DNA of 61,671 bases from an uncultured Opitutaceae bacterium (GTDB lineage Bacteria > Verrucomicrobiota > Verrucomicrobiia > Opitutales > Opitutaceae): NCBI GenBank assembly GCA_964640465.1, contig CAZXHR010000002.1, forward strand, positions 1-61,671. Reading direction: 5' to 3'. The notes under the pieces are model-generated. The model ran no database searches, had not been told where the DNA came from, and saw nothing but the letters and a program-made list of their open reading frames with translations. Shown here in pieces: positions 2,159 through 19,776 of this stretch. Position 1 is the first letter of the stretch; every line of letters starts with the position of its first letter. The position numbers and the translations under genes were made by a program.

Positions 2159-3161
2159 GACGGATGATCTCCAGTTGAGCGACCTTGAGTTCGAGGTGGT
2201 GGAGCGCGTCGGCGATGTGCCGGGAGTCGCCCTCAAGCGAGACGATGAGGATGCCGATGGGGCGGCCGGCGATGTATTCGATGCGACCGTGCAGGATGTT
2301 GAGGTGGATCTGGTGCTGGCGTGCGGTGGCGGCGATGATCGGCTCCTCGGCGGACTCGCCGCGGTAGACGAGGCGCACGAGCGTGCCCTTGGTCTGCTCC
2401 AGCAGGCGCGGCGGCAGGGTGAGATTGAGGGACTTCTCGATCAGCTCGCGGGTGAGCGCGTGCTGGGGCGTGGCGAAGACGTCGTAGGCGGCGTTCTCCT
2501 CGACGACCTCGCCCGCCTGCATGACGGCCACGCGGTGGCAGATGCGTTTGATGACGGCCATCTCGTGGGAGATGATGACGATGGTGATGCCGAGCCGGGC
2601 GTTGATGCCGGCGAGGAGGTCGAGGATCGACTCGGTGGTTTCGAGGTCGAGGGCGGAGGTCGGCTCGTCGCAGAGGAGCAGGGGCGGCTCGTTGGCGAGG
2701 GCGCGGGCGATGCCGACGCGCTGCTTCTGGCCGCCGGAGAGCTGGCCGGGAAAGGCGTGGCGCTTGTCGGAGAGCTCGACGAGATCGAGAAGCTGGGTGA
2801 CGCGCTCGCGAATCCGATCCTCGGATGCGCCGGCGGCGCGCAGCGGGAGGGCGATGTTGTCCTCGACGGTGCGGGAGTGCGCGAGGTTGAAGTGCTGGAA
2901 GACCATGCCCGTGCGCAGGCGGACGGCGCGCAGCGACTCGGTGTCGAGGCCGGTGATCTCGCGCTCGTCGATCCAGACCTGGCCGGAGGTCGGGCGCTCA
3001 AGGAGGTTGATGGTGCGCAGTAGCGTGCTCTTGCCGGCACCGCTGGTGCCGACGATGCCGTAGATCTCGCCGCGGGCGACGCTGAGCGAGACGCCGCGCA
3101 CGGCGTCGACGGTGTGGTCGCCGGCGGTGAAGCGCACGTGGATGTTCTTCAGTTCGAGCAT
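2151..3161 (-). CDS. metN: methionine ABC transporter ATP-binding protein
   Basis: Walker [10 protein letters not shown], signature LSGGQKQR, Walker [13 protein letters not shown], and a C-terminal NIL-like regulatory domain. Confidence 0.9.
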
Positions 3162-5305: not shown

Positions 5306-6448
5306 TCAGGCTTGGAGGGCTTGGCGGAGATCGGCCTCGAGGTCGTCGGCGGCTTCGAGTCCGACGGAGAGGCGGATGAGGTTGTCGTGGATGCCACGGC
5401 GGGCGCGTTCCTCGGGGGAGATGGAGGCGTGGGTCATCCGCGGCGGGTAGCAGAGCAGCGACTCCACGCCGCCTAGACTCTCGGCGAGGACGAAGAGCTT
5501 GAGCTTGGCGACGAGGCGCTCGACGGCGGGGAAGCCGCCCTTGATCTGGAGGCTGATCATGCCGCCGAAACCGCGCATCTGGCGCTTGGCCAGCGCGTGC
5601 TGGGGATGGCTCGACAGGCCGGGGTAGTAGACGCGTTCGACGGCCGGGTGCGCTTCGAGGAAACGGGCGAGGCGCAGCGCGGTGGTTTGCTGCTCTTCGA
5701 TGCGGACCTTGAGCGTCTTGATGCCGCGGAGGACGAGCCAGGAGTCCCACGGGCCGGGGACGGCGCCGGCGGCGTTCTGGTAGAACTTGATCGGGTCGTA
5801 GAGATCGCGCTCGGAGGTGACGAGGGCGCCGCCGACGACATCGCTGTGCCCGCCGAGGTACTTCGTGGTGCTGTGGACGACGACGTGCGCGCCGAGCTCC
5901 AGCGGACGCTGGAGGTAGGGGCTGGCGAAGGTGTTGTCGACGACGAGGAGCAGGCCGCGGCGGTGGGCGAGCGCGCCCAGTGCGGCGATGTCGACGAGCT
6001 TGAGCAGGGGGTTCGTCGGCGACTCGACCCAGATGAGCGCGGTCTTCGGGCCGATGGCGGCCTCGACGGCGGCGGTGTCGCTGGCATCCACATAGCGGAT
6101 GTCGACGCCCCACGGGCGGAGGATCTTCTCGAAGATGCGGTAGGTGCCGCCGTAGGTGTCGTCGCTGGCGAGGATCTGGTCGCCGGGTTTGACGAGCTGG
6201 AGGGCGGCGGTGGTGGCGGCGTTGCCGGAGCCGAAGGCGAGGCCGTACTTGCCGCCTTCGAGCAGGGCGAGCGCAGCCTCGAGCGCCTGGCGCGTCGGGT
6301 TGCCGGAGCGCGAATACTCGAAGCCCTCGCGGAACTTGCCGATGGCGTCCTGCTGGAAGGTGGAGGTCTGGTAGATCGGCACGCTCACCGCGCCGGTGCG
6401 GGGATCGGGCGCCTGACCGTCGTGGATGGCGAGAGTTTCAAATTTCAT
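5306..6448 (-). CDS. cystathionine gamma-lyase/gamma-synthase family PLP enzyme
   Basis: 380 aa with the PLP-lysine motif HSTTKYLGGHSD. Overlaps the CBS gene by 11 nt, a context that favours the gamma-lyase role in reverse transsulfuration. Confidence 0.8.
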   Translation of the reverse strand: MKFETLAIHDGQAPDPRTGAVSVPIYQTSTFQQDAIGKFREGFEYSRSGNPTRQALEAALALLEGGKYGLAFGSGNAATTAALQLVKPGDQILASDDTYGGTYRIFEKILRPWGVDIRYVDASDTAAVEAAIGPKTALIWVESPTNPLLKLVDIAALGALAHRRGLLLVVDNTFASPYLQRPLELGAHVVVHSTTKYLGGHSDVVGGALVTSERDLYDPIKFYQNAAGAVPGPWDSWLVLRGIKTLKVRIEEQQTTALRLARFLEAHPAVERVYYPGLSSHPQHALAKRQMRGFGGMISLQIKGGFPAVERLVAKLKLFVLAESLGGVESLLCYPPRMTHASISPEERARRGIHDNLIRLSVGLEAADDLEADLRQALQA

Positions 6449-7805
6449 AGGAGTCGCGGTGGCTGAAGGTGGTGATGAGGTCGAAGCGGCTGACGAGGCC
6501 GAGCGGGCGGCCGGCGCGGGTGACGACGAGGGCGGGCGAGCCGCCGAGGAGGATGCGGTAGGCCTCGGCGAGGTCGGTGGACTCGTCGAGGGACGGCAGC
6601 GGTTTTCCCATGACAGCGCGGATCTCCTGGTTCTGGAGGTCGACGCCGTCGTGCAGCGCCTTCATGAGCGTGGCCTCGTTGAGGCTGCCGACGACGCGCC
6701 GGTCCTCGACGACGGGGAGCTGCGAGATGTTGTGCTCCTGGAAGAGCTGGATGGCGGAGCGCAACCGATCCTGCGGGCGCACGGCGATGAGCTGCGGCAG
6801 CGCCGACTTCTCGGCGAGGACGCGGCCGAGCGGGATGGGCCGGGCGGCGCGCTCCTGCCAGAAGCCGTTCTGCTGCATCCACTCGTCGGAGTAGAGTTTG
6901 CTGAGGTAGTTGCGGCCGGTGTCGGGGAGGATGACGACGATCTCGCGCGGCTCGGCGAGGCGCTGGGCGAACTTGAGCGCGGCGGCCAGCGCGGTGCCGG
7001 CGGAGCCGCCGGCGAGGATGCCCTCCTCGCGGGCGAGGCGGCGCGCGGTATTGAAGGAGTCCTTGTCGCTCACGCGCACCATCTCGTCGACGAGCTGGCG
7101 GTTGAACGTCTTCGGGATGAAGTCCTCGCCGATGCCCTCGACCTTGTAGGAGCGCGGCGAGTCGCCGGAGAGGATGGAGCCCTCGGGGTCGGCGCCGACG
7201 ACGACGATGTTCGGGTTCCTCTCCTTCAGGTAGCGCGCGGTTCCGGAGATGGTGCCGCCGGTGCCCATGCCCGCGACGAGCACGCCGACGCGGCCCTCGG
7301 TGTCCTCCCAGATCTCGGGTCCGGTGGAGCGGTAGTGGGCGAGCGGATTGTTCGGGTTGGTGAACTGGTCGGGGCGGAACGCGCCGGGAATCTCGCGTGC
7401 GAGCCGGTCGGCGACGCCGTTGTAACTCTCGGGCGAGTCGGGCGCGACGTTGGTGGCGGTGACGACGACCTCGGCGCCGTAGGCGCGCAGGAGGGCGATC
7501 TTCTCGCCGCTCATCTTGTCGGGCAGGACGACGATGAGGCGGTAGCCCTTCACGGCGGCGGCGAGGGCGAGGCCGACGCCGGTGTTGCCGGCGGTGGCCT
7601 CGACGATGGTGCCGCCGGGCTTGAGCAGGCCGGCCTTCTCGGCCTCCTCGATCATGAGGAGACCGACGCGGTCCTTGACGCTGCCGCCCGGGTTGAGGGA
7701 CTCGACCTTGGCGTAGATGGGCGAGGCGAGGCCGGCGCCGAGGCGTTCGAGGCGGACGAGCGGCGTGCGGCCGACGGCCTGGAGGATGTTGGAATAGCGA
7801 GCCAT
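6438..7805 (-). CDS. cystathionine beta-synthase (CysK-like PLP domain plus a C-terminal CBS-domain pair)
   Basis: 455 aa with the PGGSVKDR PLP motif, followed by a tandem CBS-domain region (ISQLPVVEDRRVVG...). Confidence 0.85.
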   Translation of the reverse strand: MARYSNILQAVGRTPLVRLERLGAGLASPIYAKVESLNPGGSVKDRVGLLMIEEAEKAGLLKPGGTIVEATAGNTGVGLALAAAVKGYRLIVVLPDKMSGEKIALLRAYGAEVVVTATNVAPDSPESYNGVADRLAREIPGAFRPDQFTNPNNPLAHYRSTGPEIWEDTEGRVGVLVAGMGTGGTISGTARYLKERNPNIVVVGADPEGSILSGDSPRSYKVEGIGEDFIPKTFNRQLVDEMVRVSDKDSFNTARRLAREEGILAGGSAGTALAAALKFAQRLAEPREIVVILPDTGRNYLSKLYSDEWMQQNGFWQERAARPIPLGRVLAEKSALPQLIAVRPQDRLRSAIQLFQEHNISQLPVVEDRRVVGSLNEATLMKALHDGVDLQNQEIRAVMGKPLPSLDESTDLAEAYRILLGGSPALVVTRAGRPLGLVSRFDLITTFSHRDSYEI

Positions 7806-7836: not shown

Positions 7837-8493
7837 TCAGAGCTTGGAGGCGGGATTGAGCAGGCGCTGGTAGTAGAAGCCGCTGGTGTAGAGGGCGGCG
7901 GCGGGGTTGTGGCCGGTCACCCGGTCCTTGGTGATGAGCGTGGTGACGGGCGCGGCGGAGTGGCGGATGAAGAGCGAGTCGTGGCCGACGCAGAGGCCGA
8001 CGATGACGTTGAGGTCGGTCTTCTCGCGGTTGAGCAGCTCGGCCTGGAGGACCGGGTTGCAGATGGCCTCGTAGGAGCCCTTCTTGACCTTGAGCGAATC
8101 GGGGATGCCGACGTCGCACTTGTCGACGGAGCCGACCTTGCAGAGCACGGCGTACGACTCGAGCCCGTGGGCCTTGAGGATGCGCGTGAAGATGCGCGTC
8201 TCCTCGATGAGGCCGATACAGGTGGCGATCCCGATACGTTTCGCGCCGATGCGGTTGGCGAAGGCGACGATCTCCTCGACGCGGGTGAGCTTGCCGTAGT
8301 AGGTGCCCTCGACCTCGGCGGCGGCGTGCGCCATCCGGGCCTCGAGCTCGTCGCCGCGGTAGACGGCGGCGGTCTGCTCGACTAGGGCACGGTCGGCGCG
8401 CTCGGTGAGGCAGAAGTCGGGGAAGCGCTTGTCGCGGCGGTAGCAGTTAAGCAGGCCGCACTGGGCGCAGGATTGGGAGAGTTCGGCGGTCAT
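7837..8493 (-). CDS. DUF1847-like Cys-rich metal-binding protein
   Basis: Start reset to the ATG at 8493, forming an ATGA overlap with the upstream stop. The N-terminus is CAQCGLLNCYRRDKRFPDFC. I recall this family from corrinoid methyltransferase neighbourhoods. Confidence 0.6.
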   Translation of the reverse strand: MTAELSQSCAQCGLLNCYRRDKRFPDFCLTERADRALVEQTAAVYRGDELEARMAHAAAEVEGTYYGKLTRVEEIVAFANRIGAKRIGIATCIGLIEETRIFTRILKAHGLESYAVLCKVGSVDKCDVGIPDSLKVKKGSYEAICNPVLQAELLNREKTDLNVIVGLCVGHDSLFIRHSAAPVTTLITKDRVTGHNPAAALYTSGFYYQRLLNPASKL

Positions 8494-10160
8494 GAGGCGA
8501 AGGCGAGGGCGTCGACGAACGTGCGCTGGAACGCGGCGTCGTTGGCGAGTTCGAGCACCTGGACACCGGTGACAGTGCGGCCGAGGTGCTCGCGGGTGTG
8601 GCGGTTGAGGAGGAAGGCGCGAGCGCCGGACTTGGAGGTGTTGCCGACGAACTCGACGCGGTCGGCGAACTCGCGCGGGAGCAGCCCGAGGTGGATCAGG
8701 CTGGCGGTGCGCAGGTGGAAGCCGAACGAGCCGGCGATGAGCACGCGGTCGACCTGGGCGGCGGTGCGGCCGACGGCGGCGAGGAGCGACTCGATGCCGG
8801 TGCGCACAGCGGCCTTGGCGAGCTGCACCTGGCGGATGTCCTTCTGCGAGAGGTAGACGGTGTCGGTGAGCCGGAAGACGGGCTTGCCGTCGAGCGTGCC
8901 GAGACGGTCCTTCCACGGGCGGTCGGGCGCGGCGCCGTTGGTGCGGAAACGGCCGTTCTTGTCGACGGCGCCGTGTGCGGCGAACTCGGCGACGGCGTCG
9001 AGCAGGCCGCTGCCGCAGACGCCGGTGGGTGCGGTCTCGCCGATGGTGCGCAGCTCGACGGAGTCGCCCGCGAGCGAGACGAACTCGATGGCGCCGCGGC
9101 CGGCGCGCATGCCGCAGGCGATGTTCATGCCCTCGAAGGCCGGGCCGGCGGCAGTCGAGGTGGCGACGAGCTTGCCGTCGGCGGCGAGGACCATTTCGCC
9201 GTTGGTGCCGATGTCGACGAAGAGGGTGACGCCGCGCAGCGCGGCGAGATCCGTGGCTAGGATACCGGAGGTGATGTCGGCGCCGACGTAGGCGGACATG
9301 ATCGGCGGCAGGTAGACCTGGCCGCCCGGGGCGAGCTCGAGGCCGATGGAGGCGGCGTCGACGCTTTCGTCGCCGCGCAGCCTGGGCGTGTACGGGTACT
9401 TGCCCAGCGAGGCCGGGTCGGTGCCGGTCGCGAGGTGGATCATCGTGGTGTTGCCGCTGAAGATCGCCTCGTAGATGTGGGCGCGGTCGATCCGCGCCTC
9501 GGCGGCGGCCTCCGCGACGAGGCGGTTCAACTCGGCGATCACCTCGGTGTGGAGCGTGCGCAGGCCCTCGGGCGTGGAGCCGAGCTTGATGCGGGAGAGG
9601 ACGTCCTGGGCGTGGCGCGCCTGCGGGTTGAGCGCGGAGGCGTGGGCGAGTTCGCGGCCGTCGCGCAGGTCGACGAGGGCGACGACCATGGTGGTCGTGC
9701 CGATGTCAATAGCGGCGCCGTAGAGGGCGGCGGTGGTGTCGCCGGATTCCGAGGCCACGATCCGGCCGCCGGCGATGACGGCGGTGCGGTTGGAAACGGG
9801 ATCGAACGACTTCTCGAACCAAGGCGCGATGTCGACGGCGACGGTCTGGCCCTCGCGCAGGATCTTCAGCCCCTCGTCCTTCTTGAGCGGGACTTCGACG
9901 GCGAGGTCGCCGTGGACGAAGGTCTGGCAGGCGAGGGACCAGCCGGCGGCGCGGTCGGCCTCGGCGATCTTGTTGTGCGGGGACTCGACGGCGTGGGCGC
10001 GGGTGGCGGCGTCGAGCCGCACGCGGCATTTGCCGCAGGTGCCGGCGCCGTTGCAGGGCAGGTCGAAGCGGATACCGGCGCTCCTGATCGCGGCGAGCAG
10101 GGAGCGGCGCTCGGGGACCTCGACGGTGAGGTTCTGGAGGATGAAATGGACCTTGGGCAT
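8490..10160 (-). CDS. reductive activator of corrinoid enzymes (RACE/RACo-like: N-terminal 2Fe-2S ferredoxin plus an ASKHA ATPase domain)
   Basis: 556 aa. The N-terminus has the plant-type ferredoxin Cys pattern LPCNGAGTCGKCRV...ACQT. The remainder is an actin-like ATPase region (DIGTTT..., DIGTNGE). Confidence 0.8.
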   Translation of the reverse strand: MPKVHFILQNLTVEVPERRSLLAAIRSAGIRFDLPCNGAGTCGKCRVRLDAATRAHAVESPHNKIAEADRAAGWSLACQTFVHGDLAVEVPLKKDEGLKILREGQTVAVDIAPWFEKSFDPVSNRTAVIAGGRIVASESGDTTAALYGAAIDIGTTTMVVALVDLRDGRELAHASALNPQARHAQDVLSRIKLGSTPEGLRTLHTEVIAELNRLVAEAAAEARIDRAHIYEAIFSGNTTMIHLATGTDPASLGKYPYTPRLRGDESVDAASIGLELAPGGQVYLPPIMSAYVGADITSGILATDLAALRGVTLFVDIGTNGEMVLAADGKLVATSTAAGPAFEGMNIACGMRAGRGAIEFVSLAGDSVELRTIGETAPTGVCGSGLLDAVAEFAAHGAVDKNGRFRTNGAAPDRPWKDRLGTLDGKPVFRLTDTVYLSQKDIRQVQLAKAAVRTGIESLLAAVGRTAAQVDRVLIAGSFGFHLRTASLIHLGLLPREFADRVEFVGNTSKSGARAFLLNRHTREHLGRTVTGVQVLELANDAAFQRTFVDALAFAS

Positions 10161-10165
10161 GGCGG

Positions 10166-11191
10166 TCAGTTGTTGCGCACGGTGTCGGTGAACGCGCGGA
10201 GGGCGTCGATGCGGGTCGAGGTGCTCAGGCCGCAGGCTGGCGAGAGGATGTCGATGCCGCTGCGGACCAGGTTGCGGGTCATGTCGCGGATGCGGTCGGC
10301 GTCGGTGAACTCGAGCGCGTAGGTGCTCAGGTTGCCCATGGTGACGAGGCCGGGGTGGTCGCGCTTGAGGGCGGCGAGGTTGATCATCGCGTCGGTGCTC
10401 AGGGCGGCGAAGCGGAGCTGTGTCACCAGATGCTCGACGCGCTTGAGGTTGCCGCAGATGTGGAGGATGGGCGGGACGCCTGCGGCGCGGATGGCGTCGG
10501 CCAGGCGGTTGAGGTACGGCGCGGCGAAGGCCTCGAACATCGCCGGCCCGAGGATCTCGCCGGTGGCGGACGGGTCGCCGATCATGACGGAGGTGACGCG
10601 GCCCTCGCGGACGAGCACGGTGGCGTACTCGACGAGGAAGTTGGTGACGTAGTCGAGGACGTGGTGCGCGGCCGCGGGGTCCTTGCGCATGTCCTTGTAG
10701 AAGGCCAGGGGCTGGACGATGGAGGCGGCGGTGCTGACCGGGCCGGTGAGGCTGGCGATGACGGGCACGCCTGGGTTGCGCGCGGCGACGATGCGGGAGG
10801 CCTCGGCGACGACGGCGGCGCGGCCCGTGCGGGCGAGCGGGACGATCTCCCGGTACTCGACGACGGCGGAGGTGGCGAAGGGTTCGAGCGCGATCTTCGG
10901 CTCGCAGGCGAGCGTGCCCAGATCGACGCTACTGCCGAGCAGCTCGGCCTCGACGGTCATGCAGAAGGGCACGCCGATGTTCTCGAAACCGGTGTGGGCG
11001 CGGACGGCCTCGGCCAGCGCGGCCATGCGGACGGGATCGCTGTGCGCCTCGGGCAGCGTGAGGCCCGTGGCGTTCATGACGTCGACGATGGCGGCGTTCA
11101 TCATCCCGCCGGTGCAGATGACCGGCGAGCGATCGGCCCGCTCGCGATGGAGGACGTGGAGCAGGCGGTCTTTCTCGGTGAGGTTGCTCAT
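10166..11191 (-). CDS. URO-D-family methylcobamide:thiol-type methyltransferase (MtaA/MtbA/MtsA-like), copy C
   Basis: 341 aa. The Zn-ligand pattern is retained: HICG (H-x-C) plus a downstream PACG. Confidence 0.8.
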   Translation of the reverse strand: MSNLTEKDRLLHVLHRERADRSPVICTGGMMNAAIVDVMNATGLTLPEAHSDPVRMAALAEAVRAHTGFENIGVPFCMTVEAELLGSSVDLGTLACEPKIALEPFATSAVVEYREIVPLARTGRAAVVAEASRIVAARNPGVPVIASLTGPVSTAASIVQPLAFYKDMRKDPAAAHHVLDYVTNFLVEYATVLVREGRVTSVMIGDPSATGEILGPAMFEAFAAPYLNRLADAIRAAGVPPILHICGNLKRVEHLVTQLRFAALSTDAMINLAALKRDHPGLVTMGNLSTYALEFTDADRIRDMTRNLVRSGIDILSPACGLSTSTRIDALRAFTDTVRNN

Positions 11192-12381
11192 GACGATTGG
11201 GCCTGGTGTAAGGAAGTGACGGTTGCAGGTAGGGCGGGACCGCCGGGCCCGCCGCGTTCACGGACGGCCCAGCGGTCCGTCCCTACCTCGGAGAGTTCGT
11301 TGCGAGTCTCGGAACTATTGGCGCTTTGGAGGGCGGAAGGGTTGACGGGCCAGCCGAGCTCGCGGACGGCGTCGAGCATGGCGTCGATGTTGGCGAAGGG
11401 AGTCTCGACCGGCAGGGAGCAGCCGGAGGCGACAACGAGGCCGCGCGGGTTGTCGGCGGCGGCGCGGACGGTGGCGAAGACGGACGCGCGTACCTGGGCG
11501 GGCGTGCCCTGGAGCATGACCTCGGAGGGCGGGACGTTGCCCATGAGGCGGACGCGGTGGCCGATCCGCGCTTTGGCGTCGGCGAGGGCGGCGGCGTTGT
11601 CGAGCGAGAGGCAGTCGGCGCCGGTATCCGCCATGTCGGTCCAGATCGGGTGGGTCTTGCCGCAGATGTGCAGCGTGACGGAGCGTTTCTGCGAATGGAG
11701 AAATTCGACCAGGCGGCGCAGGTACGGCGCGCCGAACTCGCGGAACTGGCGCGGGCTGATGACCGTGGAGGAGCACATGGCGTCGGTGAGGCTCGGCGAC
11801 GCGCCGGTGGCGAGGATGGCGCGCGCGTAGGCGAGGGTGCTCTCGTAGGCGACCTCGACGAGGCGGTGGACGGCGGCGGGATCGCGGAGCATGAGGCGCG
11901 CGAGGTTCTCGGCGCCGATCAGGAACGACGCGGTGGTGAACGGCCCGGTGAGCGCGCCGGTGACGGGCACCTCGTGGCCGACGGCCTTGAACGCGATCTC
12001 CATCGCCTCGAGGTGATGCGGGAGGTTGCCGTCCTTCGACGGGTCGACGACGCGCAACGAGGCGATCTGGTCGACGTCGGCGATGGCCGGCGCGCCGAGG
12101 TAGGCGGTCTCGTCGTCGGGATAGTGGACCTGCGCGCCCATCGCCTCGGCGAGGGTGTAGAGGTCGGTGAAGATGCGGATGTTGTCGTAGCCGAAGCGGC
12201 GGTAGGCTGCGACGTGGGCGTCGGCGAGGAGGCGGCCGTTGCCGCGGAACGCGGAGATCTTGGCGCCGACGAGGCGCGCGGCGGTGTTGCCGACGATCGG
12301 CACGCAGGGGAGCCGGTCGATCGGCTGTCCGCGGCCGTAGGCGGCGAGGCGCTCCAAAGGACTGAGACGGTCGCGGCTCAT
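11188..12381 (-). CDS. URO-D-family methyltransferase, copy B, with a C-terminal extension of about 50 aa
   Basis: 397 aa with Zn ligands HICG plus SGCS. The tail is encoded by the REP-like doublet. There is an ATGA overlap with the downstream gene. Confidence 0.8.
   Translation of the reverse strand: MSRDRLSPLERLAAYGRGQPIDRLPCVPIVGNTAARLVGAKISAFRGNGRLLADAHVAAYRRFGYDNIRIFTDLYTLAEAMGAQVHYPDDETAYLGAPAIADVDQIASLRVVDPSKDGNLPHHLEAMEIAFKAVGHEVPVTGALTGPFTTASFLIGAENLARLMLRDPAAVHRLVEVAYESTLAYARAILATGASPSLTDAMCSSTVISPRQFREFGAPYLRRLVEFLHSQKRSVTLHICGKTHPIWTDMADTGADCLSLDNAAALADAKARIGHRVRLMGNVPPSEVMLQGTPAQVRASVFATVRAAADNPRGLVVASGCSLPVETPFANIDAMLDAVRELGWPVNPSALQSANSSETRNELSEVGTDRWAVRERGGPGGPALPATVTSLHQAQSS
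11227..11288. repeat. REPIN-like inverted doublet with AGGTAGGG heads
   Basis: Arms 11227-11243 (aggtagggcgggaccgc) and 11272-11288 (gcggtccgtccctacct) are complementary at 15 of 17 positions. The doublet lies inside the 3' tail of ORF 11188-12381. Confidence 0.65.
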
Positions 12382-12382
12382 G

Positions 12383-13045
12383 TCAGGCGGCGACGTCGGC
12401 GGTGAGGAGCTGTTGGATGAGTTTCACGGCGGCGGGCGCGGTGGGCGAATAGCCGTCGGCGCCGATGCGTTTGGCGAAACCGGCGGAGATCGGGCCGCCG
12501 CCGACGATGACCTTGAACTTCTCGCGTACGCCGGCCTGTTCGAGCAGGCGGACGACTTCGCTCATCGCGTCCATCGTGGTCGTCATGAGCGTGGAGAGCG
12601 CGATGACGCTGGCGCCGGACTTGATCGCCTCGTCGACGAAACGCTGCGGGGCGATGTCGCGGCCGAGGTCGATGAGCTCGAAGCCGGCGGCCTCTAGCAT
12701 GATCTTCACGAGGTTCTTGCCGATGTCGTGCGTGTCGCCCTCGACGACGCCGATGACGATCTTCTTGCGCTCCTTGGTGCTGTCGCGGCGGATATGCGGC
12801 CGGAGGATGTCGAGGCCGGTGTACATCGCATCGGAGCAGAGCAGGAGCTCGGGGATGAAGTACTCCTCGGTCTCGAAGAGCTGGCCGGCGCGGTTCATGC
12901 CGTCGACCAGGCCGTTCTCGATGGCGGTGGTGGCGTCGACGCCTTGGGCGACCACGGAGTTTGCGTGTGTGCGGGTGGAGTCTTCATCCATGCCGACGAC
13001 GGAATCGGAGAGGGCGCGGAAGAGTTCGGATTGCTGCTGGCTCAT
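12383..13045 (-). CDS. corrinoid (B12-binding) protein, MtaC/MtbC/MtsB-like
   Basis: 220 aa with the DxHxxG motif (GDTHDIGKN), an S-x-L motif (ALSTLM) and a GG motif (VIVGGGPI), preceded by an N-terminal helical cap domain. Confidence 0.9.
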   Translation of the reverse strand: MSQQQSELFRALSDSVVGMDEDSTRTHANSVVAQGVDATTAIENGLVDGMNRAGQLFETEEYFIPELLLCSDAMYTGLDILRPHIRRDSTKERKKIVIGVVEGDTHDIGKNLVKIMLEAAGFELIDLGRDIAPQRFVDEAIKSGASVIALSTLMTTTMDAMSEVVRLLEQAGVREKFKVIVGGGPISAGFAKRIGADGYSPTAPAAVKLIQQLLTADVAA

Positions 13046-13100
13046 GGGAGAAATGGGAGAGAGGGGAAGGATGGGAGGAATGGGATGCGCGGAGCGGAAC

Positions 13101-13126
13101 GGTCGCGGGCGAGCCGCGACCCTACC
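13101..13126. repeat. REP-like hairpin with a GGTAGGG head (minus-strand reading GGTAGGGTCGCGGCTCGCCCGCGACC)
   Basis: Palindrome ggtcgcgg/ccgcgacc, read directly. The TAG within the head is the stop codon of the gene at 13122-14171. Confidence 0.65.
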
Positions 13127-14171
13127 GCAAGCGTGGTGGCGGTTGCGGGGTTGTGGCGCGGGCGGTGGCGACCATGGCCTGGACGTTGGCGAGCGGGACG
13201 GAGGGAGGGATGTCGCAGCCGGGCATGACGAGGTAGCCGGCGCCGGGGCCGGCGAGGCGGATGCTCTCGCGGCAGGCGGCGGCGACGCCCTCGGGCGTCT
13301 CCTTCTGCAGGATGGCGACGGGATTCATGTTGCCTGCGAAGGCGATGTGGCCGCCGAGGGCGCGGCGCGCGGCGGAGAGGTCGACCTTGTAGTCGACGGA
13401 CATGATCTGCGCGCCGGTCGCCGGGATGGTATCCAGACGGTTGGTGGTGTTGCCGCAGATGTGGACGAGCACCCAGACGCCGCGGGCGCGGATGCGGGCG
13501 GCGACACGGGCGAGGTAGGGTTGCGCGAACTCGACGAACTGCTCGCGCGAGATCAGGTCGCCCGAGGCGGTGGGATCGGCGAGCGAGACGAGCGAGACGC
13601 CGGCGTCGATGAACGGCTCCAGGTAGGCGAAGCAGAGCTCGGCGGAGAAATCGAGGACGGCGTGGACGGCGGCGGGGTCCTTGCGGATCGCGCGCATGAG
13701 GTTCTCGACGCCGTAGGCCAGCCCGCCGAGCGTGAACGGCGCCCACTGGCTGGTGCCGACGACGGTGTGCGAGCCGATGGAACGGGAGAGGATGCCGGCG
13801 GCGGCGACCAGTTGGCGGATACCGGCGTCGTCCCCGACGCGGCGCGGGTCGATGCGCGGGATATCGGCGAGCGAGCGCAGGAGCGGCTCCTGGACATCGG
13901 GCGTGCCCTTGGCGCGGAACTTCAGGCGGCCGCCGACGCCGCGGATGGCGAGGTTGTGGTAGCCGGAGCCGGGCCAGACGATGTCGGCGCCGACCTTGAC
14001 GTTGGTCTCTTCGATGACCTCGGCGATGCGTTCGCCGCCGACCTCCAGGGCGCGCTCCAGCGTGAGGCCGCTCTGGTTGAGCGTCCACGCGCCGGCGGAG
14101 AGCAACGACACGGGCTGGCGTGGCGTGGCTTCGAGCCGGATGAGACTGGAGACGATTTCCCTGGAGGTCAT
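13122..14171 (-). CDS. URO-D-family methyltransferase, copy A
   Basis: 349 aa with Zn ligands HICG plus PGCD. Confidence 0.8.
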   Translation of the reverse strand: MTSREIVSSLIRLEATPRQPVSLLSAGAWTLNQSGLTLERALEVGGERIAEVIEETNVKVGADIVWPGSGYHNLAIRGVGGRLKFRAKGTPDVQEPLLRSLADIPRIDPRRVGDDAGIRQLVAAAGILSRSIGSHTVVGTSQWAPFTLGGLAYGVENLMRAIRKDPAAVHAVLDFSAELCFAYLEPFIDAGVSLVSLADPTASGDLISREQFVEFAQPYLARVAARIRARGVWVLVHICGNTTNRLDTIPATGAQIMSVDYKVDLSAARRALGGHIAFAGNMNPVAILQKETPEGVAAACRESIRLAGPGAGYLVMPGCDIPPSVPLANVQAMVATARATTPQPPPRLR

Positions 14172-14339: not shown

Positions 14340-15410
14340 TCAGGGTTTGGTGGCGGGCGCGGTGTCGCGCTTCACGTAGTCGGCCTCGAGTTGCTTCCAG
14401 AACGGGTCCTTCGGGCTGGCGGTGGCGGCTGAGTCGAGGGCGCGCTTGTAGAAGGAGGTGTCGACGAAGGAGGCGATGTCGCGCTCCTGCTCGGCGTACC
14501 CGATGCGACGCATGACGTTCCAGAAGCGGACCGTGTTCGCGATGTCGGGATCGGTCGGCTGGTCGTTGAGGTACGACGCATCGATGATGTGGCGGTCGAG
14601 CTTGATGTACTTGGTGATGATATCGACGGCCTGGTCGCGGTGGTCGTGGCCGAACTTCTCGGCCTTGAGCAGCGCGGCGATCACGCCGGCGATGACCTGG
14701 GGACGCTCGGTGACGTCCTTGGTCTGCACCACCAGGCGGCAGCACGGGTGGTTGGGGAGGAGATCGTGGCTGGTGGCGACGACCTTCAGACCGCTCTCGA
14801 CGGCGCGGACGACGTGCGGCTCCCAGACGGTGCCGGCGTCGACTTCGCCCGAGCGGACGGCCTCGATGACGGCCGGCGGGCTCTTGAGCTCGAAGATCTG
14901 GATATCCTTGCCGGGGACGATGCCCAGGTCGAGGAGGTGGCCGCGCAGGGCGGTGTCGGCGGAGGAGAGGCGGACGACGGCGACCTTGCGGCCCCTGAGA
15001 TCGGCGACGCTCTTGATCGTGGCGGCCTTTTCGGCGGTCGTGATCAGCGCGGCATCCTCGTTGTGGATGCCGCCGACGATCCGGATGTCGGCGCCCTTGG
15101 CGATGTGGAAGAGCGGGGCGGTGGCGCCGAAGGCGCCGAAGTCGAGCTTGCCGGCGCGGACGGCGGCGAGACCGTCAGCGGAGTTCTGGAACTCGACTAG
15201 CTCGACCTTGAGGCCCTGCTCGGCGAAGTAGCCGAGTTCCTGGGCGACGAAGATCTTGCCCTGGCCGGGCACGAGGATGTGGCCGAACTTGATCGGCGTG
15301 AGTTCGGTGGCGGGCGCTGCGGGGGCGGGGTTCTCGGCATGGAGAACGGCGGCTGTCAGCAACGCGAGCGCGGCGGGAAGCGAGCGCTGGAGGATGGAGT
15401 TTGGTTTCAT
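14340..15410 (-). CDS. ABC substrate-binding protein, NMT1/THI5-like (NitT/TauT family), paralog 1
   Basis: 356 aa with a signal peptide and the HPCCR motif. Adjacent to the permease and ATPase genes. Confidence 0.8.
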   Translation of the reverse strand: MKPNSILQRSLPAALALLTAAVLHAENPAPAAPATELTPIKFGHILVPGQGKIFVAQELGYFAEQGLKVELVEFQNSADGLAAVRAGKLDFGAFGATAPLFHIAKGADIRIVGGIHNEDAALITTAEKAATIKSVADLRGRKVAVVRLSSADTALRGHLLDLGIVPGKDIQIFELKSPPAVIEAVRSGEVDAGTVWEPHVVRAVESGLKVVATSHDLLPNHPCCRLVVQTKDVTERPQVIAGVIAALLKAEKFGHDHRDQAVDIITKYIKLDRHIIDASYLNDQPTDPDIANTVRFWNVMRRIGYAEQERDIASFVDTSFYKRALDSAATASPKDPFWKQLEADYVKRDTAPATKP

Positions 15411-15444: not shown

Positions 15445-16296
15445 TCAGCGGACCCAGAAGAGGGCGCGGCGGCGGATGCGTTCGAGCAGGCCGGTGGTGA
15501 GCAGCACGACGACGCTGGTGTAGAGGATGCCGGCGACCATGCGCGGGTAGTCGGCGTAATCGGCGTAGAGCTGGATGAAGCGGCCGAGGCCGGCGCTGGC
15601 GCCGAAGAGCTCGGCGATCGTCAGCATGATGAACGAGAACACGAGGCCGACGGAGAGGCCGGAGAAGATGTGCGGAAGCGCGGCGGGGAAGACGACGTGG
15701 CGGAGGTACTCGGCGCGGCCGAGGCCGAGGATGAGGGCGTTGTCGCGGAAGCGGCGGGGAACCGAGCCGGCGCCGGCGGTGGTATTGAGGAATATGGGCC
15801 AGAAGGCGCCGACGAAGACGATGAAGCCGGCGGCGGTGCGGAAGGAGGGCAGCAGCGCGATCGCGTAGGGGATGTAGATCGTGGGCGGGATCGGCGATGC
15901 CAGGCGCGAGAATGCCGAGAAGAGCCGGTGCAGCGCGGGCGTGGTGCCGACGAGCAGGCCCCAGACGATGCCGGCGACGACGGCGAGCAGGTATCCCGGC
16001 GCGAGGATCAGGAAGGAGGAGACGGAGCCCTTGAGCAGCTCGGGCAGCGAGAGCCAGAGGGCCTTGAGCGAGGCCCATGGCGTGGGGAACAGGTAGCTGC
16101 CGGAGAAGGAGAGGCCGGCACTGACGACGATCCAGAGTGCGAGCAGCGCGAGGAGGAAGACGGCGCCCTCGCGGCCGTGGAGAATTCGCCAGGGACGGAA
16201 GGGCGCGGCGACGGGCGAGTCCGGGAGCTTGTTGCCGTGGGCGAGGATCGTGGTCGGCGCGGAGTCCGCTTGTGCGGTATCGGCGAGTGTGCTCAT
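15445..16296 (-). CDS. ABC transporter permease (SsuC/TauC-like)
   Basis: 283-aa polytopic protein, similar to binding-protein-dependent transport permeases. Confidence 0.8.
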   Translation of the reverse strand: MSTLADTAQADSAPTTILAHGNKLPDSPVAAPFRPWRILHGREGAVFLLALLALWIVVSAGLSFSGSYLFPTPWASLKALWLSLPELLKGSVSSFLILAPGYLLAVVAGIVWGLLVGTTPALHRLFSAFSRLASPIPPTIYIPYAIALLPSFRTAAGFIVFVGAFWPIFLNTTAGAGSVPRRFRDNALILGLGRAEYLRHVVFPAALPHIFSGLSVGLVFSFIMLTIAELFGASAGLGRFIQLYADYADYPRMVAGILYTSVVVLLTTGLLERIRRRALFWVR

Positions 16297-16303: not shown

Positions 16304-17146
16304 TCAGATGCCCTCGGCGACGGAGGCGACGAGCGACTCGGCTTCGATCCGGTCGATCAGGTCCTGTTGGAAGCGTTCGTCGATGCGTTGGCGCAGGGCG
16401 ACGAACTCCGGCGTGCGGGAGAGTTCGCGGCGCTGGCGCGGGCGAGGGAAGGGGATGTCGAGCTGCTCGATGACGCGGCCGGGCGTGGAGCCGAGGAGGA
16501 CGACGCGGTCGGAAAGGTACAGGGCCTCGTCGAGGTCGTGGGTGACGAAGACGACGGTCTTGCGCGGGCTGGAACCGGCCCAGATGGCGATGAGAAGATC
16601 CTGGAGCTTGGCGCGGTTGAGCGGATCGAGGGCGCCGAAGGGCTCGTCCATGAGGAGCACCTTTGAGCCGAGGGCGAAGGTGCGCGCGATGGCGCCGCGC
16701 TGGAGCATGCCGCCGGAGAGTTCGAAGGGATACTTCGCGGTGGCGGCCTCGAGGCCGACGAGCCCGAGGAATTCGGCGGCGGTGATGCGGCGCTGCTCGT
16801 CGGTGGTCTCCGGGTGGGACTTGGAGAGGGCGAACTCGACGTTCTCGGAGAGCGTGAGCCACGGGAAGAGCGAGTAGTCCTGGAAAACGACTCCGCGTTC
16901 CAACGACGGGCCGACGAGCGGACGGCCCTGCCAGGAGAGGCTGCCGGACTGTGGGCGATCGAGACCGGCGAGGAGGCGCAGGAGCGTGGTCTTGCCGCAA
17001 CCGCTCGGGCCGAGAAGCGAGACGAACGATCCGGCGGCGATATCGAGCCGGATGTCGGATAGGATCGGCGTGCCGGCGTAGGCGAAGTTGACGGCTTCGA
17101 TCTGCAGGCCGGTGTCGGCGGAGGTGGTGGCGGGTGTGGTGCTCAT
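16304..17146 (-). CDS. ABC transporter ATP-binding protein (SsuB/TauB-like)
   Basis: Start reset to the ATG at 17146. Walker A GPSGCGKTT, signature LSGGMLQR, Walker B LLMDEPFGALD. Confidence 0.85.
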   Translation of the reverse strand: MSTTPATTSADTGLQIEAVNFAYAGTPILSDIRLDIAAGSFVSLLGPSGCGKTTLLRLLAGLDRPQSGSLSWQGRPLVGPSLERGVVFQDYSLFPWLTLSENVEFALSKSHPETTDEQRRITAAEFLGLVGLEAATAKYPFELSGGMLQRGAIARTFALGSKVLLMDEPFGALDPLNRAKLQDLLIAIWAGSSPRKTVVFVTHDLDEALYLSDRVVLLGSTPGRVIEQLDIPFPRPRQRRELSRTPEFVALRQRIDERFQQDLIDRIEAESLVASVAEGI

Positions 17147-17401
17147 GGATCGCGGTGCGCGGTTGAGGCGGGTGGGCGAAGTGGGTGGGACGGGCCGGGT
17201 GGCGTGTGGGCGGGAGTTGCGAGTTGGGCGAAGCGAGGACTGGCGGAGTTGAGGGTTGGTGACGGATTTCGGGCATGGCATGGCCCACGCCCCGTGTCTC
17301 GGGAGTTCGGAGAGGAGGGCCGGTGTGGCGGAGACCGCTCAGCCGTCACACCGGCCGTGGCTGCGTCGAGATGTGGGGGACGCAGCGAAGATGGTGCGGG
17401 A

Positions 17402-19761: not shown

Positions 19762-19776
19762 CTGAATCTGTAGAAT

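Follow-up and report, generated by a model that had tools for sequence, protein, structure and literature searches.

The operon-like locus analysed here is best read, with moderate confidence, as an Opitutaceae sulfur-assimilation super-operon centred on a type 1 mlp cluster, in which S-methyl compounds would be scavenged anaerobically through corrinoid-dependent demethylation to feed O-acetylhomoserine sulfhydrylase (MetY), cystathionine beta-synthase (CBS) and cystathionine gamma-lyase (CGL). The DNA, hereafter the window, is the stretch of 61,671 nt at positions 1–61,671 (forward strand) of contig CAZXHR010000002.1 (assembly GCA_964640465.1) of an uncultured Opitutaceae bacterium (Verrucomicrobiota). 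Methyl groups are probably stripped from sulfur compounds so that their sulfur becomes usable. Rather than a new kind of system, the core appears to be what Kountz & Balskus (bioRxiv 2023) term a 'type 1 mlp gene cluster', in its non-selenium clade, and the original prediction, which knew of no such wiring in this kind of organism, was out of date on this point, since that preprint describes clusters with sulfur genes in non-methanogens. What appears new is the occurrence of an mlp-type cluster in Verrucomicrobiota (Opitutaceae), as well as in the carriers identified here among Acidobacteriota, Planctomycetota and Anaeromyxobacter, none of them on the published list of 367 organisms; the core type was already described, by bioinformatics, in 2023.

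Organization of the locus

Six densely packed minus-strand genes at 7837–14171 encode three URO-D methyltransferases (UROD1–3), a corrinoid protein, a RACo-type activase and a DUF1847 protein (Table 1). Open reading frames and Pfam profile searches bore out the families and positions originally proposed, together with the tight coupling of the genes: ATGA overlaps at 8490–8493 and 11188–11191, a 1-nt gap at 12382, and 31 nt between the DUF1847 and CBS genes. The UROD2/UROD3 overlap is owed solely to a GC-rich palindromic, hairpin-forming insertion through which the UROD2 frame stays open and which makes up its last 42 codons (~11191–11316); the 93% identical orthologue of L012, the closest relative, lacks this insertion. 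While the six-gene block stood, the functional unit proved larger (~182–18748), running upstream to 18748 and downstream to 182 and adding an outer-membrane protein, an ABC importer and MetNIQ. A terminator-like hairpin ends the preceding transcript, and the promoter of the unit is therefore expected in 18749–19731; at the other end, a perfect palindrome (fold energy of −62.7 kcal/mol over 60–185) possibly marks the transcript end. A search for regulatory elements linking expression to sulfur status, SAM and B12 riboswitches among them, turned up none. The host is a soil-type Verrucomicrobium.

Table 1 Features of the super-operon and its flanks
Feature	Coordinates	Strand	Basis
Terminator-like hairpin	19732..19764	−	13 pairs + T-run; ends preceding minus-strand transcript
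Outer-membrane beta-barrel protein, first gene of unit	17402..18748	−	Weak OMP_b-brl/DUF2490 Pfam matches
ABC transporter ATPase (SsuB/TauB-like)	16304..17281	−	ORF + orthologues
ABC transporter permease (SsuC-like)	15445..16296	−	60–86% identity in related loci
SBP1, periplasmic substrate-binding protein (NMT1/SsuA family)	14340..15410	−	PF13379 + PF09084
UROD1, Zn corrinoid methyltransferase	13122..14171	−	URO-D Pfam E = 1e-55; predicted ligands H237/C239/C319
Corrinoid (B12-binding) protein	12383..13045	−	B12-binding + B12-binding_2 Pfam; DTHDIG at residue 104
UROD2, Mlp2-type Zn methyltransferase (putative)	11188..12381	−	URO-D Pfam E = 5e-88; predicted ligands H238/C240/C321
UROD3, Mlp3-type Zn methyltransferase (putative)	10166..11191	−	URO-D Pfam E = 8e-68; predicted ligands H244/C246/C320
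RACo/RACE-type reductive activase	8490..10160	−	Fer2 + Raco_middle + RACo_C_ter; 2Fe-2S ferredoxin, middle and ASKHA ATPase domains
DUF1847 protein	7837..8493	−	Pfam DUF1847 E = 1e-64
Cystathionine beta-synthase (CBS)	6438..7805	−	PALP + two CBS domains; TIGR01137 553 bits (cut-off 510)
Cystathionine gamma-lyase/gamma-synthase family enzyme (CGL)	5306..6448	−	PF01053 (Cys_Met_Meta_PP); PRK07811 547 bits (cut-off 513)
SBP2, second SsuA/NMT1-family binding protein	4225..5262	−	46% identical to SBP1
MetQ-type lipoprotein	3276..4115	−	42–48% identical to Lipoprotein_9 genes of L002
MetN ABC ATPase, C-terminal NIL-type region	2151..3161	−	54% identical to PF09383-bearing L002 gene
MetI permease	1487..2158	−	ORF + comparison with related loci
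MetY2, cluster-associated O-acetylhomoserine sulfhydrylase	182..1459	−	TIGR01326 534 bits (cut-off 495)
Perfect long palindrome (GTAGGAGCC...GGCTCCTAC)	88..165	−	3' of MetY2; REP-like

The transport genes recur in relatives. An orthologue of the outer-membrane protein occupies the same position in L012 (62% identical; PF10082 BBP2_2), with homologues also in L004 and L007, and orthologues of the ABC ATPase (57–74% identity) adjoin UROD1 in L003–L009 and L012. SBP1, which scores slightly under the SsuA_fam cut-off (TIGR01728, 158 against 163.5 bits) and has E. coli SsuA 2x26 as its closest solved structure (E = 5.5e-19), is kept with the cluster even in Firmicutes (L016, 39% identity). Among the sulfur amino-acid genes, those for CGL and CBS overlap by 11 nt, a full-length CBS orthologue (60% identical) forms the end of the Bryobacterales cluster L003, and MetY2 is 67% identical to the Anaeromyxobacter MetY 3' of UROD1 and 83% to the L012 copy.

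Three predicted zinc methyltransferases and their corrinoid partners

The H-x-C...C ligand pattern originally noted in all three methyltransferases was recovered by motif check, as HIC 237–239 with MPGCD (C319) in UROD1, HIC 238–240 with SGCS (C321) in UROD2 and HIC 244–246 with PACG (C320) in UROD3. The His and two Cys positions are 98–100% conserved among 119–120 homologues each of UROD1 and UROD3, and the UROD3 motifs align with LHICGN and PGCG of MtaA (PDB 4ay7). The Pfam family name, and the label 'uroporphyrinogen decarboxylase' carried by homologues in many database entries, would instead assign the three enzymes to haem biosynthesis, a reading to which we give next to no credence: the hemE model returns 37–94 bits (cut-off 303) and MT2-type models 177–349 bits, all three have zinc ligands, and they are encoded alongside a corrinoid protein and an activase. 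By sequence, all three are MtaA/CmuA-type methyltransferases, not HemE, and the original methyltransferase reading, for which clustering with HemE had been named as the challenge, holds.

Placed in a neighbour-joining (NJ) tree, along the lines the original prediction had suggested, the three enzymes turned out not to be equivalent but to represent three old lineages with differing conservation patterns. UROD3 clusters with Mlp3-position proteins and MtaA, and UROD2 falls in one clade with Mlp2-position proteins, including Acetoanaerobium proteins of 350/356 aa; UROD1 is, on sequence grounds, a lineage of its own related to Mlp2. UROD3 is the most MtaA/MtbA-like of the three (PRK06252, 349 bits against a cut-off of 244; match to MtaA 4ay7, E = 5e-41, ~30–40% similar) but misses the equivalog cut-offs of both MtaA (211 bits; 400) and MtbA (194 bits; 600). 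UROD2 would thus correspond to Mlp2 and UROD3 to Mlp3, an assignment that draws on the rough NJ tree and on orthologous clusters in organisms that Kountz & Balskus list, or in relatives of these, rather than on their reference sequences, the labels of the published tree being anonymised.

The accessory proteins largely matched expectation. The corrinoid protein carries the anticipated DTHDIG motif, is 55–64% identical to its counterparts in Acetoanaerobium, Acetivibrio and Clostridia clusters, and is matched by the metH model (E = 4e-34). Pfam confirms the ferredoxin-type 2Fe-2S and ASKHA domains of the activase, whose cysteines are, however, spaced C36-x5-C42-x2-C45...C78 rather than C-x4-C-x2-C as first described. 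The DUF1847 protein, which goes unmentioned in the Kountz & Balskus text, is 72–74% identical to Firmicutes homologues that likewise lie 3' of RACo and has eight invariant cysteines (9, 12, 17, 28, 92, 118, 145, 168) plus H171 and H195; its AF2 model (pLDDT 78) gave no significant PDB fold match.

The URO-D family also includes O-demethylases and the chloromethane enzyme CdmB, and UROD1 faintly matches the CdmB structure 9rui (E = 7.5e-6), which raises the prospect of methylotrophic catabolism, with an O-, N- or halo-methyl compound donating its methyl to a pterin for carbon or energy. As originally observed, no pterin-binding, MtaB or MttB domain was detected by profile searches in any annotated ORF of the window. 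A pterin could still accept the methyl group despite this absence, as the URO-D-family MtoA of Methermicoccus uses H4MPT. Even so, we regard such catabolism as very improbable: the invariant His-Cys-Cys set is of the thiol/selenol type, whereas O-demethylases have carboxylates in place of Cys, no folate methyltransferase was found at the cluster and no C1 or folate gene near it, and the conserved neighbours are all sulfur genes.

Conservation and relation to known systems

UROD1 is 69–76% identical across Acidobacteriota, Planctomycetota, Verrucomicrobiota and Myxococcota, and lies directly upstream of MetY2 in L001–L009 (these phyla and other MAGs); adjacency to a dedicated O-acetylhomoserine sulfhydrylase spans five phyla. 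UROD3 orthologues (52–61% identity) immediately precede RACo in 12 of 13 related loci. The UROD3 type occurs in every cluster while the UROD1 and UROD2 types vary, and one minimal cluster makes do with a UROD1-like and a UROD3-like enzyme, a corrinoid protein and RACo. Sulfur amino-acid genes adjoin the module in relatives of at least five phyla, with CBS, PALP, CGL, MetK, MetNIQ, Rrf2, sulfite reductase or a methionine-type aminotransferase nearby. In L012, CBS/CGL are not next to the core; the genes downstream of it encode a binding protein, a metallo-beta-lactamase-fold protein, ABC proteins, an aminotransferase and MetY. The neighbourhood conservation originally anticipated therefore held for MetY and sulfur assimilation generally, which is the conserved feature, and not for the specific CBS/CGL adjacency.

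The core extends to Firmicutes in unchanged order: Methylomusa anaerophila and Acetivibrio straminisolvens share UROD2 (65–68%; the first methyltransferase of their clusters), UROD3 (53%), RACo (52–53%), DUF1847 (72–74%) and the NMT1 binding protein, and the Acetivibrio locus additionally has the corrinoid protein (64%); the same orthologous, syntenic genes are common to the window and Methylomusa, Acetivibrio or Clostridia mlp clusters. Methylomusa anaerophila is listed among the carriers of non-selenium type I MGCs, and methyl-sulfur metabolism has been proposed for non-methanogen type 1 clusters, which adjoin MetY, MccA (CBS-like), MetB/MetC and methionine transporters (Kountz & Balskus, bioRxiv 2023). 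With these the window shares methionine/cysteine-metabolism neighbours and the lack of an H4folate methyltransferase, but it differs in its extra outer-membrane protein, full reverse-transsulfuration pair and MetNIQ, in a UROD1-lineage enzyme with no fixed place in the Mlp1/2/3 scheme, and in having no Mar-like nitrogenase-family gene nearby or elsewhere in the window.

A selenium role, in which dimethylselenide or methylselenol would be demethylated to selenide as proposed for ~90% of type 1 clusters, draws on the family's only enzyme assay, where ClMlp2, with methylcobalamin as the methyl source, methylated selenide and, at a lower rate, sulfide (a 4.3-fold preference for the former), and on deletion of the Mlp2 gene sdmC in Methanococcus voltae, which abolished dimethylselenide use (Kountz & Balskus, bioRxiv 2023). 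For this locus it is scarcely probable: UROD3 groups with the Methylomusa/Acetivibrio non-selenium clade and shares just 40% identity with the selenium-type Mlp3 of Acetoanaerobium, no selenium gene was found in the window or related loci, and sulfur genes abound in every neighbourhood.

Methanogen systems (MtsA/MtsB, MtpA/MtpC, fused MtsD/F/H and the MT2 enzymes MtaA/MtbA) share the predicted chemistry, methyl exchange between a Zn-thiolate methyltransferase and a corrinoid protein that alternates between Co(I) and CH3-Co(III), with thioether donors possible. Unlike methanogen methylthiol:CoM systems, the window has no coenzyme M context and no methanogenesis, its activase is of the bacterial RACo type, and its purpose appears assimilatory rather than energy-yielding. 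MetH and core-MetE (MesA-type) likewise have a Zn-activated homocysteine thiolate attack methyl-cobalamin or a methyl-corrinoid, with a DxHxxG B12-binding domain, whereas the window system is modular, on separate polypeptides, with RACo for reactivation and neither a pterin-binding nor an AdoMet-reactivation domain. MarBHDK and related nitrogenase-like systems (DMS, DMSP, methylthioethanol) share its ecological logic and its neighbours: sulfonate-type transporters, MetY, MetC and methionine transporters. The Mar system of R. palustris is induced under sulfate limitation, and Mar-like genes function in assimilating DMS and methylthio compounds under anoxia; they surround, and are physically linked to, the orthologous Firmicutes clusters. 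Mar cleaves C–S bonds reductively on a nitrogenase-like cofactor, whereas the window cluster would transfer methyl to cobalt.

Proposed route of methylated sulfur

A sulfur-centred methyl donor and acceptor is the best reading, also published by Kountz & Balskus, because the enzymes are of the MtaA/CmuA type with invariant His-Cys-Cys, no folate methyltransferase is present and sulfur genes are neighbours in at least five phyla. Together with the gene content, orthology and synteny described above, family knowledge of Co(I)/CH3-Co(III) cycling, Zn-thiolate chemistry and ATP-dependent reactivation suggests the following route. S-methylated organosulfur compounds, including methionine, would enter through the outer-membrane channel, the SsuABC-like importer with its two binding proteins, and MetNIQ. 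RACo, probably assisted by DUF1847 as a putative 8-Cys metalloprotein, would bring the corrinoid protein to the Co(I) state at the expense of ATP and a low-potential electron. On the donor side, UROD2 (Mlp2) and UROD1 would hold thioether sulfur on zinc, pass the methyl to Co(I) and free the thiol; genomic context, which guides the choice of substrates, flux direction and final acceptor, suggests as candidates the conversion of DMS into methanethiol, of methanethiol into sulfide and of methionine (or another R-S-CH3) into homocysteine (or R-SH). The MtaA-like UROD3 (Mlp3) would deliver methyl from CH3-Co(III) to a thiol, most plausibly homocysteine or sulfide. We propose this division of donor and acceptor sides from the ubiquity of UROD3 and its adjacency to RACo, set against the variable UROD1 and UROD2. 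MetY2 would condense freed sulfide or methanethiol with O-acetylhomoserine, and CBS and CGL would convert homocysteine to cysteine. The missing CBS/CGL adjacency in L012, the selenide preference in the family assay and the lack of a riboswitch at the locus count against this reading.

Kountz & Balskus (bioRxiv 2023) model the non-selenium clusters as methionine salvage, in which the methylthio group of endogenous MTA-derived metabolites is dismantled, the methyl parked on the corrinoid protein and methionine rebuilt from homocysteine. Methionine-type aminotransferases and MetK adjoin related clusters, and the Mar-like genes linked in Firmicutes are known from anaerobic MTA salvage; here we consider salvage unlikely, given that MTA-pathway genes (MtnP/MtnK/MtnA, aldolase, RubisCO-like protein) are absent from the window and L001–L012 and that the conserved outer-membrane protein and ABC importer favour an external substrate.

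The second hypothesis of the original prediction, not mutually exclusive with its first, demethylation, was folate-independent methionine synthesis, with UROD3 delivering the methyl of an imported donor to MetY2-made homocysteine in place of MetH/MetE. MetY2 is strictly linked to the cluster, and the archaeal core methionine synthase model PRK00957 weakly matches UROD3 (E = 2.8e-5, a marginal similarity) and Acetoanaerobium Mlp3 (E = 4.7e-11). These MetE-like signals are clan-level and far under cut-off, Meth_synt_2 finds no match in the window UROD3 even at E ≤ 10, and CBS/CGL with a methionine importer in the operon point to consumption of methionine or homocysteine, which leaves this wiring a doubtful one. 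A few homologues have a precomputed PF01717 match, a further sign in its favour.

For the demethylation route that we favour, homocysteine cannot absorb both methyls per DMS sulfur, so another methyl acceptor may exist. Volatile DMS and methanethiol need no ABC importer, and the conserved SsuA-like binding protein thus points to a polar substrate.

Operon structure and the three methyltransferases

The genes at 182-18748 all run on the minus strand, through DNA of 68-70% G+C, and their assignments are supported by Pfam and NCBIfam with strong E-values, the outer-membrane protein having weak matches. Coordinates are collected in the table. Successive members of the central module, from the URO-D-family zinc methyltransferase UROD1 to the DUF1847 protein, are spaced by 76, 1, -4, 5 and -4 nt, and DUF1847 lies 31 nt from CBS. 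The original prediction of a six-gene corrinoid methyltransferase module proved structurally correct, with its motifs present and the family profiles matched, save that the ferredoxin motif of the activase reads C-x5-C-x2-C...C (Cys 36, 42, 45 and 78) rather than C-x4-C-x2-C. This activase (RACo) carries Fer2 (E=1.4e-10), Raco_middle (E=1.8e-55) and RACo_C_ter (E=2.1e-69) domains. It reached 386 bits on the AcsV-specific model against a cut-off of 800, and we therefore do not regard it as a CoFeSP activase.

Features of the operon, of the adjoining low-G+C block and of related clusters (window positions unless a related locus is named)
Feature	Position	Strand	Remark
Outer-membrane beta-barrel protein	17402-18748	minus	first in transcription order
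ABC ATPase	16304-17281	minus
ABC permease	15445-16296	minus
SBP1, SsuA/NMT1-family binding protein	14340-15410	minus
UROD1	13122-14171	minus
Corrinoid protein	12383-13045	minus
UROD2	11188-12381	minus
UROD3	10166-11191	minus
RACo-type activase	8490-10160	minus
DUF1847 protein	7837-8493	minus
Cystathionine beta-synthase (CBS)	6438-7805	minus
Cystathionine gamma-lyase/synthase-family enzyme	5306-6448	minus
SBP2, second SsuA-like binding protein	4225-5262	minus
MetQ, MetN, MetI	1487-4115 together	minus
O-acetylhomoserine sulfhydrylase (MetY2)	182-1459	minus
Tyrosine integrase gene	19844-21289		starts lower-G+C block
BT4734-like N-terminal-domain protein	21872-23317		in lower-G+C block
tRNA-Asn	28104-28178		ends lower-G+C block
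DUF1638/CobW accessory genes	L001 5261-5953; L002 5654-6439; L014 5396-6331; L019 2206-3156		related clusters

A strong terminator-like hairpin at 19732-19764 ends the transcript preceding the operon. Within the operon we found no convincing internal terminator, and other terminator-like sites were no commoner than in shuffled sequences. A sigma-70 consensus scan returned no promoter-like site, and Rfam returned no SAM, B12 or other riboswitch, either in the window at the gathering threshold or in the upstream region at E<=1. Plus-strand GC skew is strongly positive, at about +0.2, wherever genes run on the minus strand (1-20000, 30000-34000 and 50000-58000), so the coding strand is markedly richer in C than in G; this presumably stems from codon bias and not from a replication signal.

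All three methyltransferases contain the predicted H-x-C...C zinc-ligand motif, which is invariant among about 120 homologues each of UROD1 and UROD3. The closest solved structure for each of the three is MtaA (PDB 4ay7), whose LHICGN and PGCG motifs align with the UROD3 ligands. As had been anticipated, they are not HemE uroporphyrinogen decarboxylases: they scored 71, 94 and 37 bits on TIGR01464, with a cut-off of 303, against 177-349 bits on MtaA/CmuA and PRK06252 models. Profile scores and ligands led us to reject HemE and O-demethylase readings alike, and we consider methylotrophy on O-, N- or Cl-methyl compounds very improbable for this locus. The MtaA and MtbA equivalog models, with cut-offs of 400 and 600, were missed by UROD3 (211/194 bits), UROD2 (153/126) and UROD1 (124/127), and the broad subfamily model PRK06252 (cut-off 244) was passed by UROD3 alone, at 349 bits. 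No CoM-biosynthesis or Mcr genes were seen within the window.

The three paralogues share 25-30% identity with one another, whereas each has orthologues in distant phyla at 50-76%; these values point to three old lineages. In a rough neighbor-joining tree, UROD3 grouped with MtaA and with the proteins that precede the activase in every related cluster. UROD2 fell together with two Acetoanaerobium proteins and with the methyltransferase that comes first in the Methylomusa, Acetivibrio and Clostridia clusters, and UROD1 belonged to a large, diverse lineage of its own, the sister of the UROD2 clade. Exhaustive searching with HMMER yielded 144 clusters at 50% identity related to UROD1 (E<=1e-30). 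Relatives listed for UROD3 and UROD1 were mostly metagenome proteins; one, a fused corrinoid-methyltransferase protein from Methanofastidiosia, was too distant (30% identity) to be diagnostic.

Type 1 mlp membership and conserved neighbors

[quoted passage not shown] Judged from sequence, the locus described here has this composition. A His-Cys-Cys coordination sphere is present as a motif in UROD1, UROD2 and UROD3, with the metal predicted; Pfam and NCBIfam identify a corrinoid protein and a bacterial-type Ram/RACE activase; and no pterin-binding H4folate methyltransferase occurs at 182-18748, where every ORF falls in another family. Published tree leaves are anonymized (for example, 'Mlp2 247'), and Mlp classes were assigned through orthology to the clusters of Methylomusa anaerophila, a listed carrier of non-selenium type I clusters (PMC10418091), and Acetivibrio straminisolvens. 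The Methylomusa order is URO-D, URO-D, RACo, DUF1847 and NMT1 binding protein, its methyltransferases being 68% identical to UROD2 and 53% to UROD3. In Acetivibrio, a corrinoid protein (64%), orthologues of UROD2 (65%) and UROD3 (53%), RACo (52%), DUF1847 (72%), a binding protein and ABC genes follow one another and adjoin genes resembling the nitrogenase-like methylthio-alkane reductase (Mar), an architecture like that in Figure 7a of the same study. Since clusters with only two Mlps must by definition hold one Mlp2 and one Mlp3, UROD2 would be an Mlp2 and UROD3 an Mlp3, an assignment with which the tree agrees.

The majority of type 1 mlp clusters are tied to selenium, and a non-selenium clade adjoins MetY, CysK, MetB/MetC, MccA, methionine transporters and Mar-like nitrogenase-family genes (PMC10418091). 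Compared with counterparts in the Acetoanaerobium, Acetivibrio, Methylomusa or Clostridia clusters, identities come to 55-64% for the corrinoid protein and 35-53% for RACo. Acetoanaerobium noterae, a listed carrier of a selenium-type cluster (PMC10418091), is clearly more distant (40% identity to UROD3, 32-34% to UROD2), which places our locus in the non-selenium group; on the rough tree, too, UROD3 joins the Methylomusa, Acetivibrio and Clostridia proteins and stands away from the Acetoanaerobium Mlp3. This Mlp3 placement and the MetY, CBS, CGL and MetNIQ neighbors are what would be expected of the non-selenium clade. Methyl-sulfur use or methionine salvage had been suggested by the authors as the role of that clade (PMC10418091), so that the sulfur-centered function originally predicted here, although reasonable, re-derives a published hypothesis.

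Beyond that hypothesis, the present locus and its relatives make modest additions. They extend the cluster type to Verrucomicrobiota, Acidobacteriota, Planctomycetota and Myxococcota, all missing from the published list, whose known carriers are stated to be obligate anaerobes throughout (PMC10418091). They also reveal a strict pairing of UROD1 with MetY2, near-constant DUF1847 and SsuA-like importer components, and the embedding of the cluster with a complete reverse-transsulfuration pair and MetNIQ.

Proteins of Opitutaceae MAGs match UROD3 and DUF1847 at 84-90% identity, and the closest relative, an Opitutaceae locus on a 4.5-Mb contig (L012), has the same core in the same order; the window accordingly derives from a bacterium of the Opitutaceae (Verrucomicrobiota). 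UROD1 orthologues (69-76%) occur in Bryobacterales, Bryobacteraceae, Isosphaeraceae, Chthoniobacteraceae, Anaeromyxobacter(aceae) and other MAGs. Our scan of genome contigs returned nine loci (L001-L009); because it relies on exact peptide words, these undersample the taxonomic breadth. In all nine, UROD1 is followed directly by MetY2, a methyltransferase-like protein (330-346 aa, weakly similar to class-I SAM-methyltransferases and assigned to no Pfam family) and a DddQ-like DMSP-lyase cupin (PF16867; PDB 5cu1, E=1e-18). Most of these blocks also connect with genes for an SsuA-like ABC importer, the corrinoid protein, UROD3, RACo and DUF1847 and, where the locus has one, UROD2. Orthology identifies the MetY of the window as MetY2, which shares 67% identity with the Anaeromyxobacter copy and 83% with that of L012. 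A search of the window revealed neither the methyltransferase-like gene nor the cupin gene; the window stops 181 nt past MetY2, and as the methyltransferase-like gene of L012 follows MetY2, both may sit just outside. The pair itself spans five phyla from soil, peat and fen (L001 12344-14007, the same block in L002-L009, and L012 20059-21015), and it is puzzling to meet a homologue of DMSP lyase in genomes of this non-marine, anaerobe-like type.

UROD3-type proteins are the constant partner, lying directly upstream of RACo in 12 of 13 loci, and UROD1 and UROD2 types are variable. Proteins 42-48% identical to UROD1 serve as third methyltransferases in Firmicutes-type clusters. Such proteins lie between RACo and Mar-like genes (L020), between MetY/MetA and further Cys/Met enzymes (L019), and at the head of a minimal cluster in the order UROD1-like protein, corrinoid protein, UROD3-like protein, RACo (L017). 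Among relatives the UROD1-MetY2 pairing is conserved (9/9), and CBS/CGL adjacency is not universal. The cluster of L003 ends with a full-length CBS (60% identical), and PALP- or CGL-type genes lie nearby in L002, L009, L013 and L016, whereas L012 has instead a binding protein, a metallo-beta-lactamase-fold protein, ABC genes, a methionine-type aminotransferase and MetY2; an assimilatory sulfite reductase lies upstream. A class I/II aminotransferase in the window (39940-41229, plus strand) is 30% identical to the methionine-type aminotransferase of the L002, L012 and L016 clusters; lying 20 kb from the operon, it is probably unrelated. Accessory genes elsewhere comprise DUF1638 (Anaeromyxobacter and a metagenome contig) and CobW-type GTPases (Acetoanaerobium and L019), possibly zinc chaperones; neither type is present in the window.

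No other protein of the set is as well conserved as DUF1847, which keeps 72-74% identity from Opitutaceae to Firmicutes and has eight invariant cysteines (9, 12, 17, 28, 92, 118, 145 and 168) and two invariant histidines (H171 and H195). It follows RACo in the window, L003, L012, L015 (Methylomusa) and L016 (Acetivibrio), and lies within the cluster in L001, L008 and L009. Its AF2 model (pLDDT 78) has an alpha/beta core, for which Foldseek against the PDB gave nothing significant (best E=5e-3, TM about 0.3, generic Rossmann-like folds); a sequence search of the PDB gave no match, and a literature search found no paper. Our guess is a metal- or cluster-binding helper of corrinoid activation.

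Candidate route from methylated sulfur to cysteine

RACo-type enzymes use ATP to reduce corrinoid proteins that are in the inactive Co(II) state, DxHxxG proteins alternate between Co(I) and CH3-Co(III), and in MT2-type URO-D enzymes a Zn-bound thiolate exchanges methyl with cobalt. Together with the genomic context, this family knowledge leads most economically to a model in which S-methyl compounds are demethylated for assimilation. UROD2 (Mlp2) and UROD1 would act on methyl donors to yield methanethiol, sulfide or homocysteine-type thiols, and UROD3 (Mlp3) would discharge the methyl group onto a thiol acceptor. MetY2 would capture sulfide or methanethiol on O-acetylhomoserine, and CBS and CGL would carry homocysteine to cysteine. 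The CBS is bona fide by profile (TIGR01137, 553 bits against 510; PALP and two CBS domains), and its partner exceeds the cut-off of PRK07811 (547 against 513), a model that bears the name gamma-synthase; we assign the partner to the gamma-lyase family, its sequence being compatible with lyase or synthase activity alike, and the two together make up a reverse-transsulfuration pair.

The conserved importer, whose binding protein has SsuA as its closest solved relative, implies a polar substrate, which is one weak point of the demethylation model. The UROD1-MetY2-cupin block hints at a route that would start from DMSP-like sulfonium compounds and run through DMS and methanethiol to methionine. 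There is a parallel in Rhodopseudomonas palustris, where Mar-dependent assimilation of DMS/DMSP was recently shown: its Mar loci, induced by sulfate limitation, have neighbors of the same kinds as this cluster. Methyl balance is another weak point, as an acceptor beyond homocysteine is needed if DMS is the substrate. Two further points count against sulfur demethylation. No riboswitch or other regulatory clue emerged from Rfam and promoter scans, and the sole enzymology in the family favored selenide: given methylcobalamin, ClMlp2 methylated selenide, and sulfide 4.3-fold more slowly (PMC10418091). Even so, for a cluster placed in the non-selenium group, we give selenium salvage very little credence.

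In the authors' model for the clade, the corrinoid protein holds the methyl group, which may then be passed back to homocysteine (PMC10418091). A MetE-like character of UROD3 is not used here as evidence for a homocysteine acceptor, because the window's UROD3 has no Meth_synt_2 match (Pfam, E<=10), its Acetivibrio orthologue reaching only E=0.023. We hold folate-independent methionine synthesis to be improbable. Methionine salvage, the other role put forward for the clade, would here start from MTA, and we think it unlikely.

Returning to demethylation, we offer a joint reading tentatively: the locus might encode a route from methylated sulfur to cysteine that does not depend on SAM, its corrinoid-dependent zinc methyltransferases acting directly on imported methionine, or on DMS/methanethiol and a polar S-methyl compound, and leaving homocysteine or sulfide after demethylation. 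On this view UROD1 would be a cobalt-based functional analogue of the nitrogenase-like Mar enzymes, and DUF1847 a previously unrecognized, near-obligatory metallo-partner of RACo. If this were true, anaerobic soil and peat bacteria of the Verrucomicrobiota, Acidobacteriota, Planctomycetota and Myxococcota would live on methylated sulfur in a way that has gone unrecognized. The demethylation model, if true, would add a cobalamin-dependent branch to the sulfur cycle of anoxic soils (DMS, methanethiol and methionine turnover) and tie sulfur nutrition to the availability of B12.

Soil sulfur consists predominantly of organosulfur compounds, whose oxygen-independent uses are poorly known. Mlp clusters are widespread, and we know of no substrate firmly assigned to them. 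The locus and its relatives carry the cluster type from mostly Firmicutes anaerobes into abundant soil and peat phyla, and they offer three experimental handles: the dedicated importer, whose binding protein is open to ligand screening; the strict UROD1-MetY pairing, from which methanethiol or sulfide is predicted as an intermediate; and DUF1847, so strongly conserved between Verrucomicrobia and Firmicutes.

Palindromes and a probable mobile element

UROD2 ends in a 42-residue tail that is absent from its 93%-identical L012 orthologue (ending ...ALQSTN*). The DNA encoding the tail (11195-11316) forms a palindrome rich in GC, GGTAGGG...CCCTACC, and its stretch 11195-11300 is predicted to fold with an energy of -55.5 kcal/mol. 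It resembles a small insertion of the REP-like kind through which the original stop codon was lost and the overlap with UROD3 created. The ATGA overlap noted in the original prediction is present, but only because UROD2 reads through this 42-codon palindromic insertion. A perfect long palindrome, GTAGGAGCCTGCTTGCAGGCGAT...ATCGCCTGCAAGCAGGCTCCTAC, lies at 88-165, directly after MetY2, and L012 has a similar palindrome after its own MetY2 gene (gene end about 19935). Both the MetY2-side palindrome and the UROD2 insertion start with GTAGG, a trait of REP elements. The minus strand at 47959-48933, in a stretch of lower GC (54-61%), encodes a protein of 324 aa that carries an IS200-like Y1 transposase domain (PF01797, E=1.4e-14) and could be a REP-associated tyrosine transposase (RAYT) tied to the GTAGG palindromes.

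Adjoining the upstream region of the operon is a block of lower G+C (19844-28178, 58-64%) that runs from a tyrosine integrase gene to tRNA-Asn and contains several ORFs without family matches; it is a probable integrated mobile element. At the same position L012 holds the sulfite reductase and a PALP enzyme.
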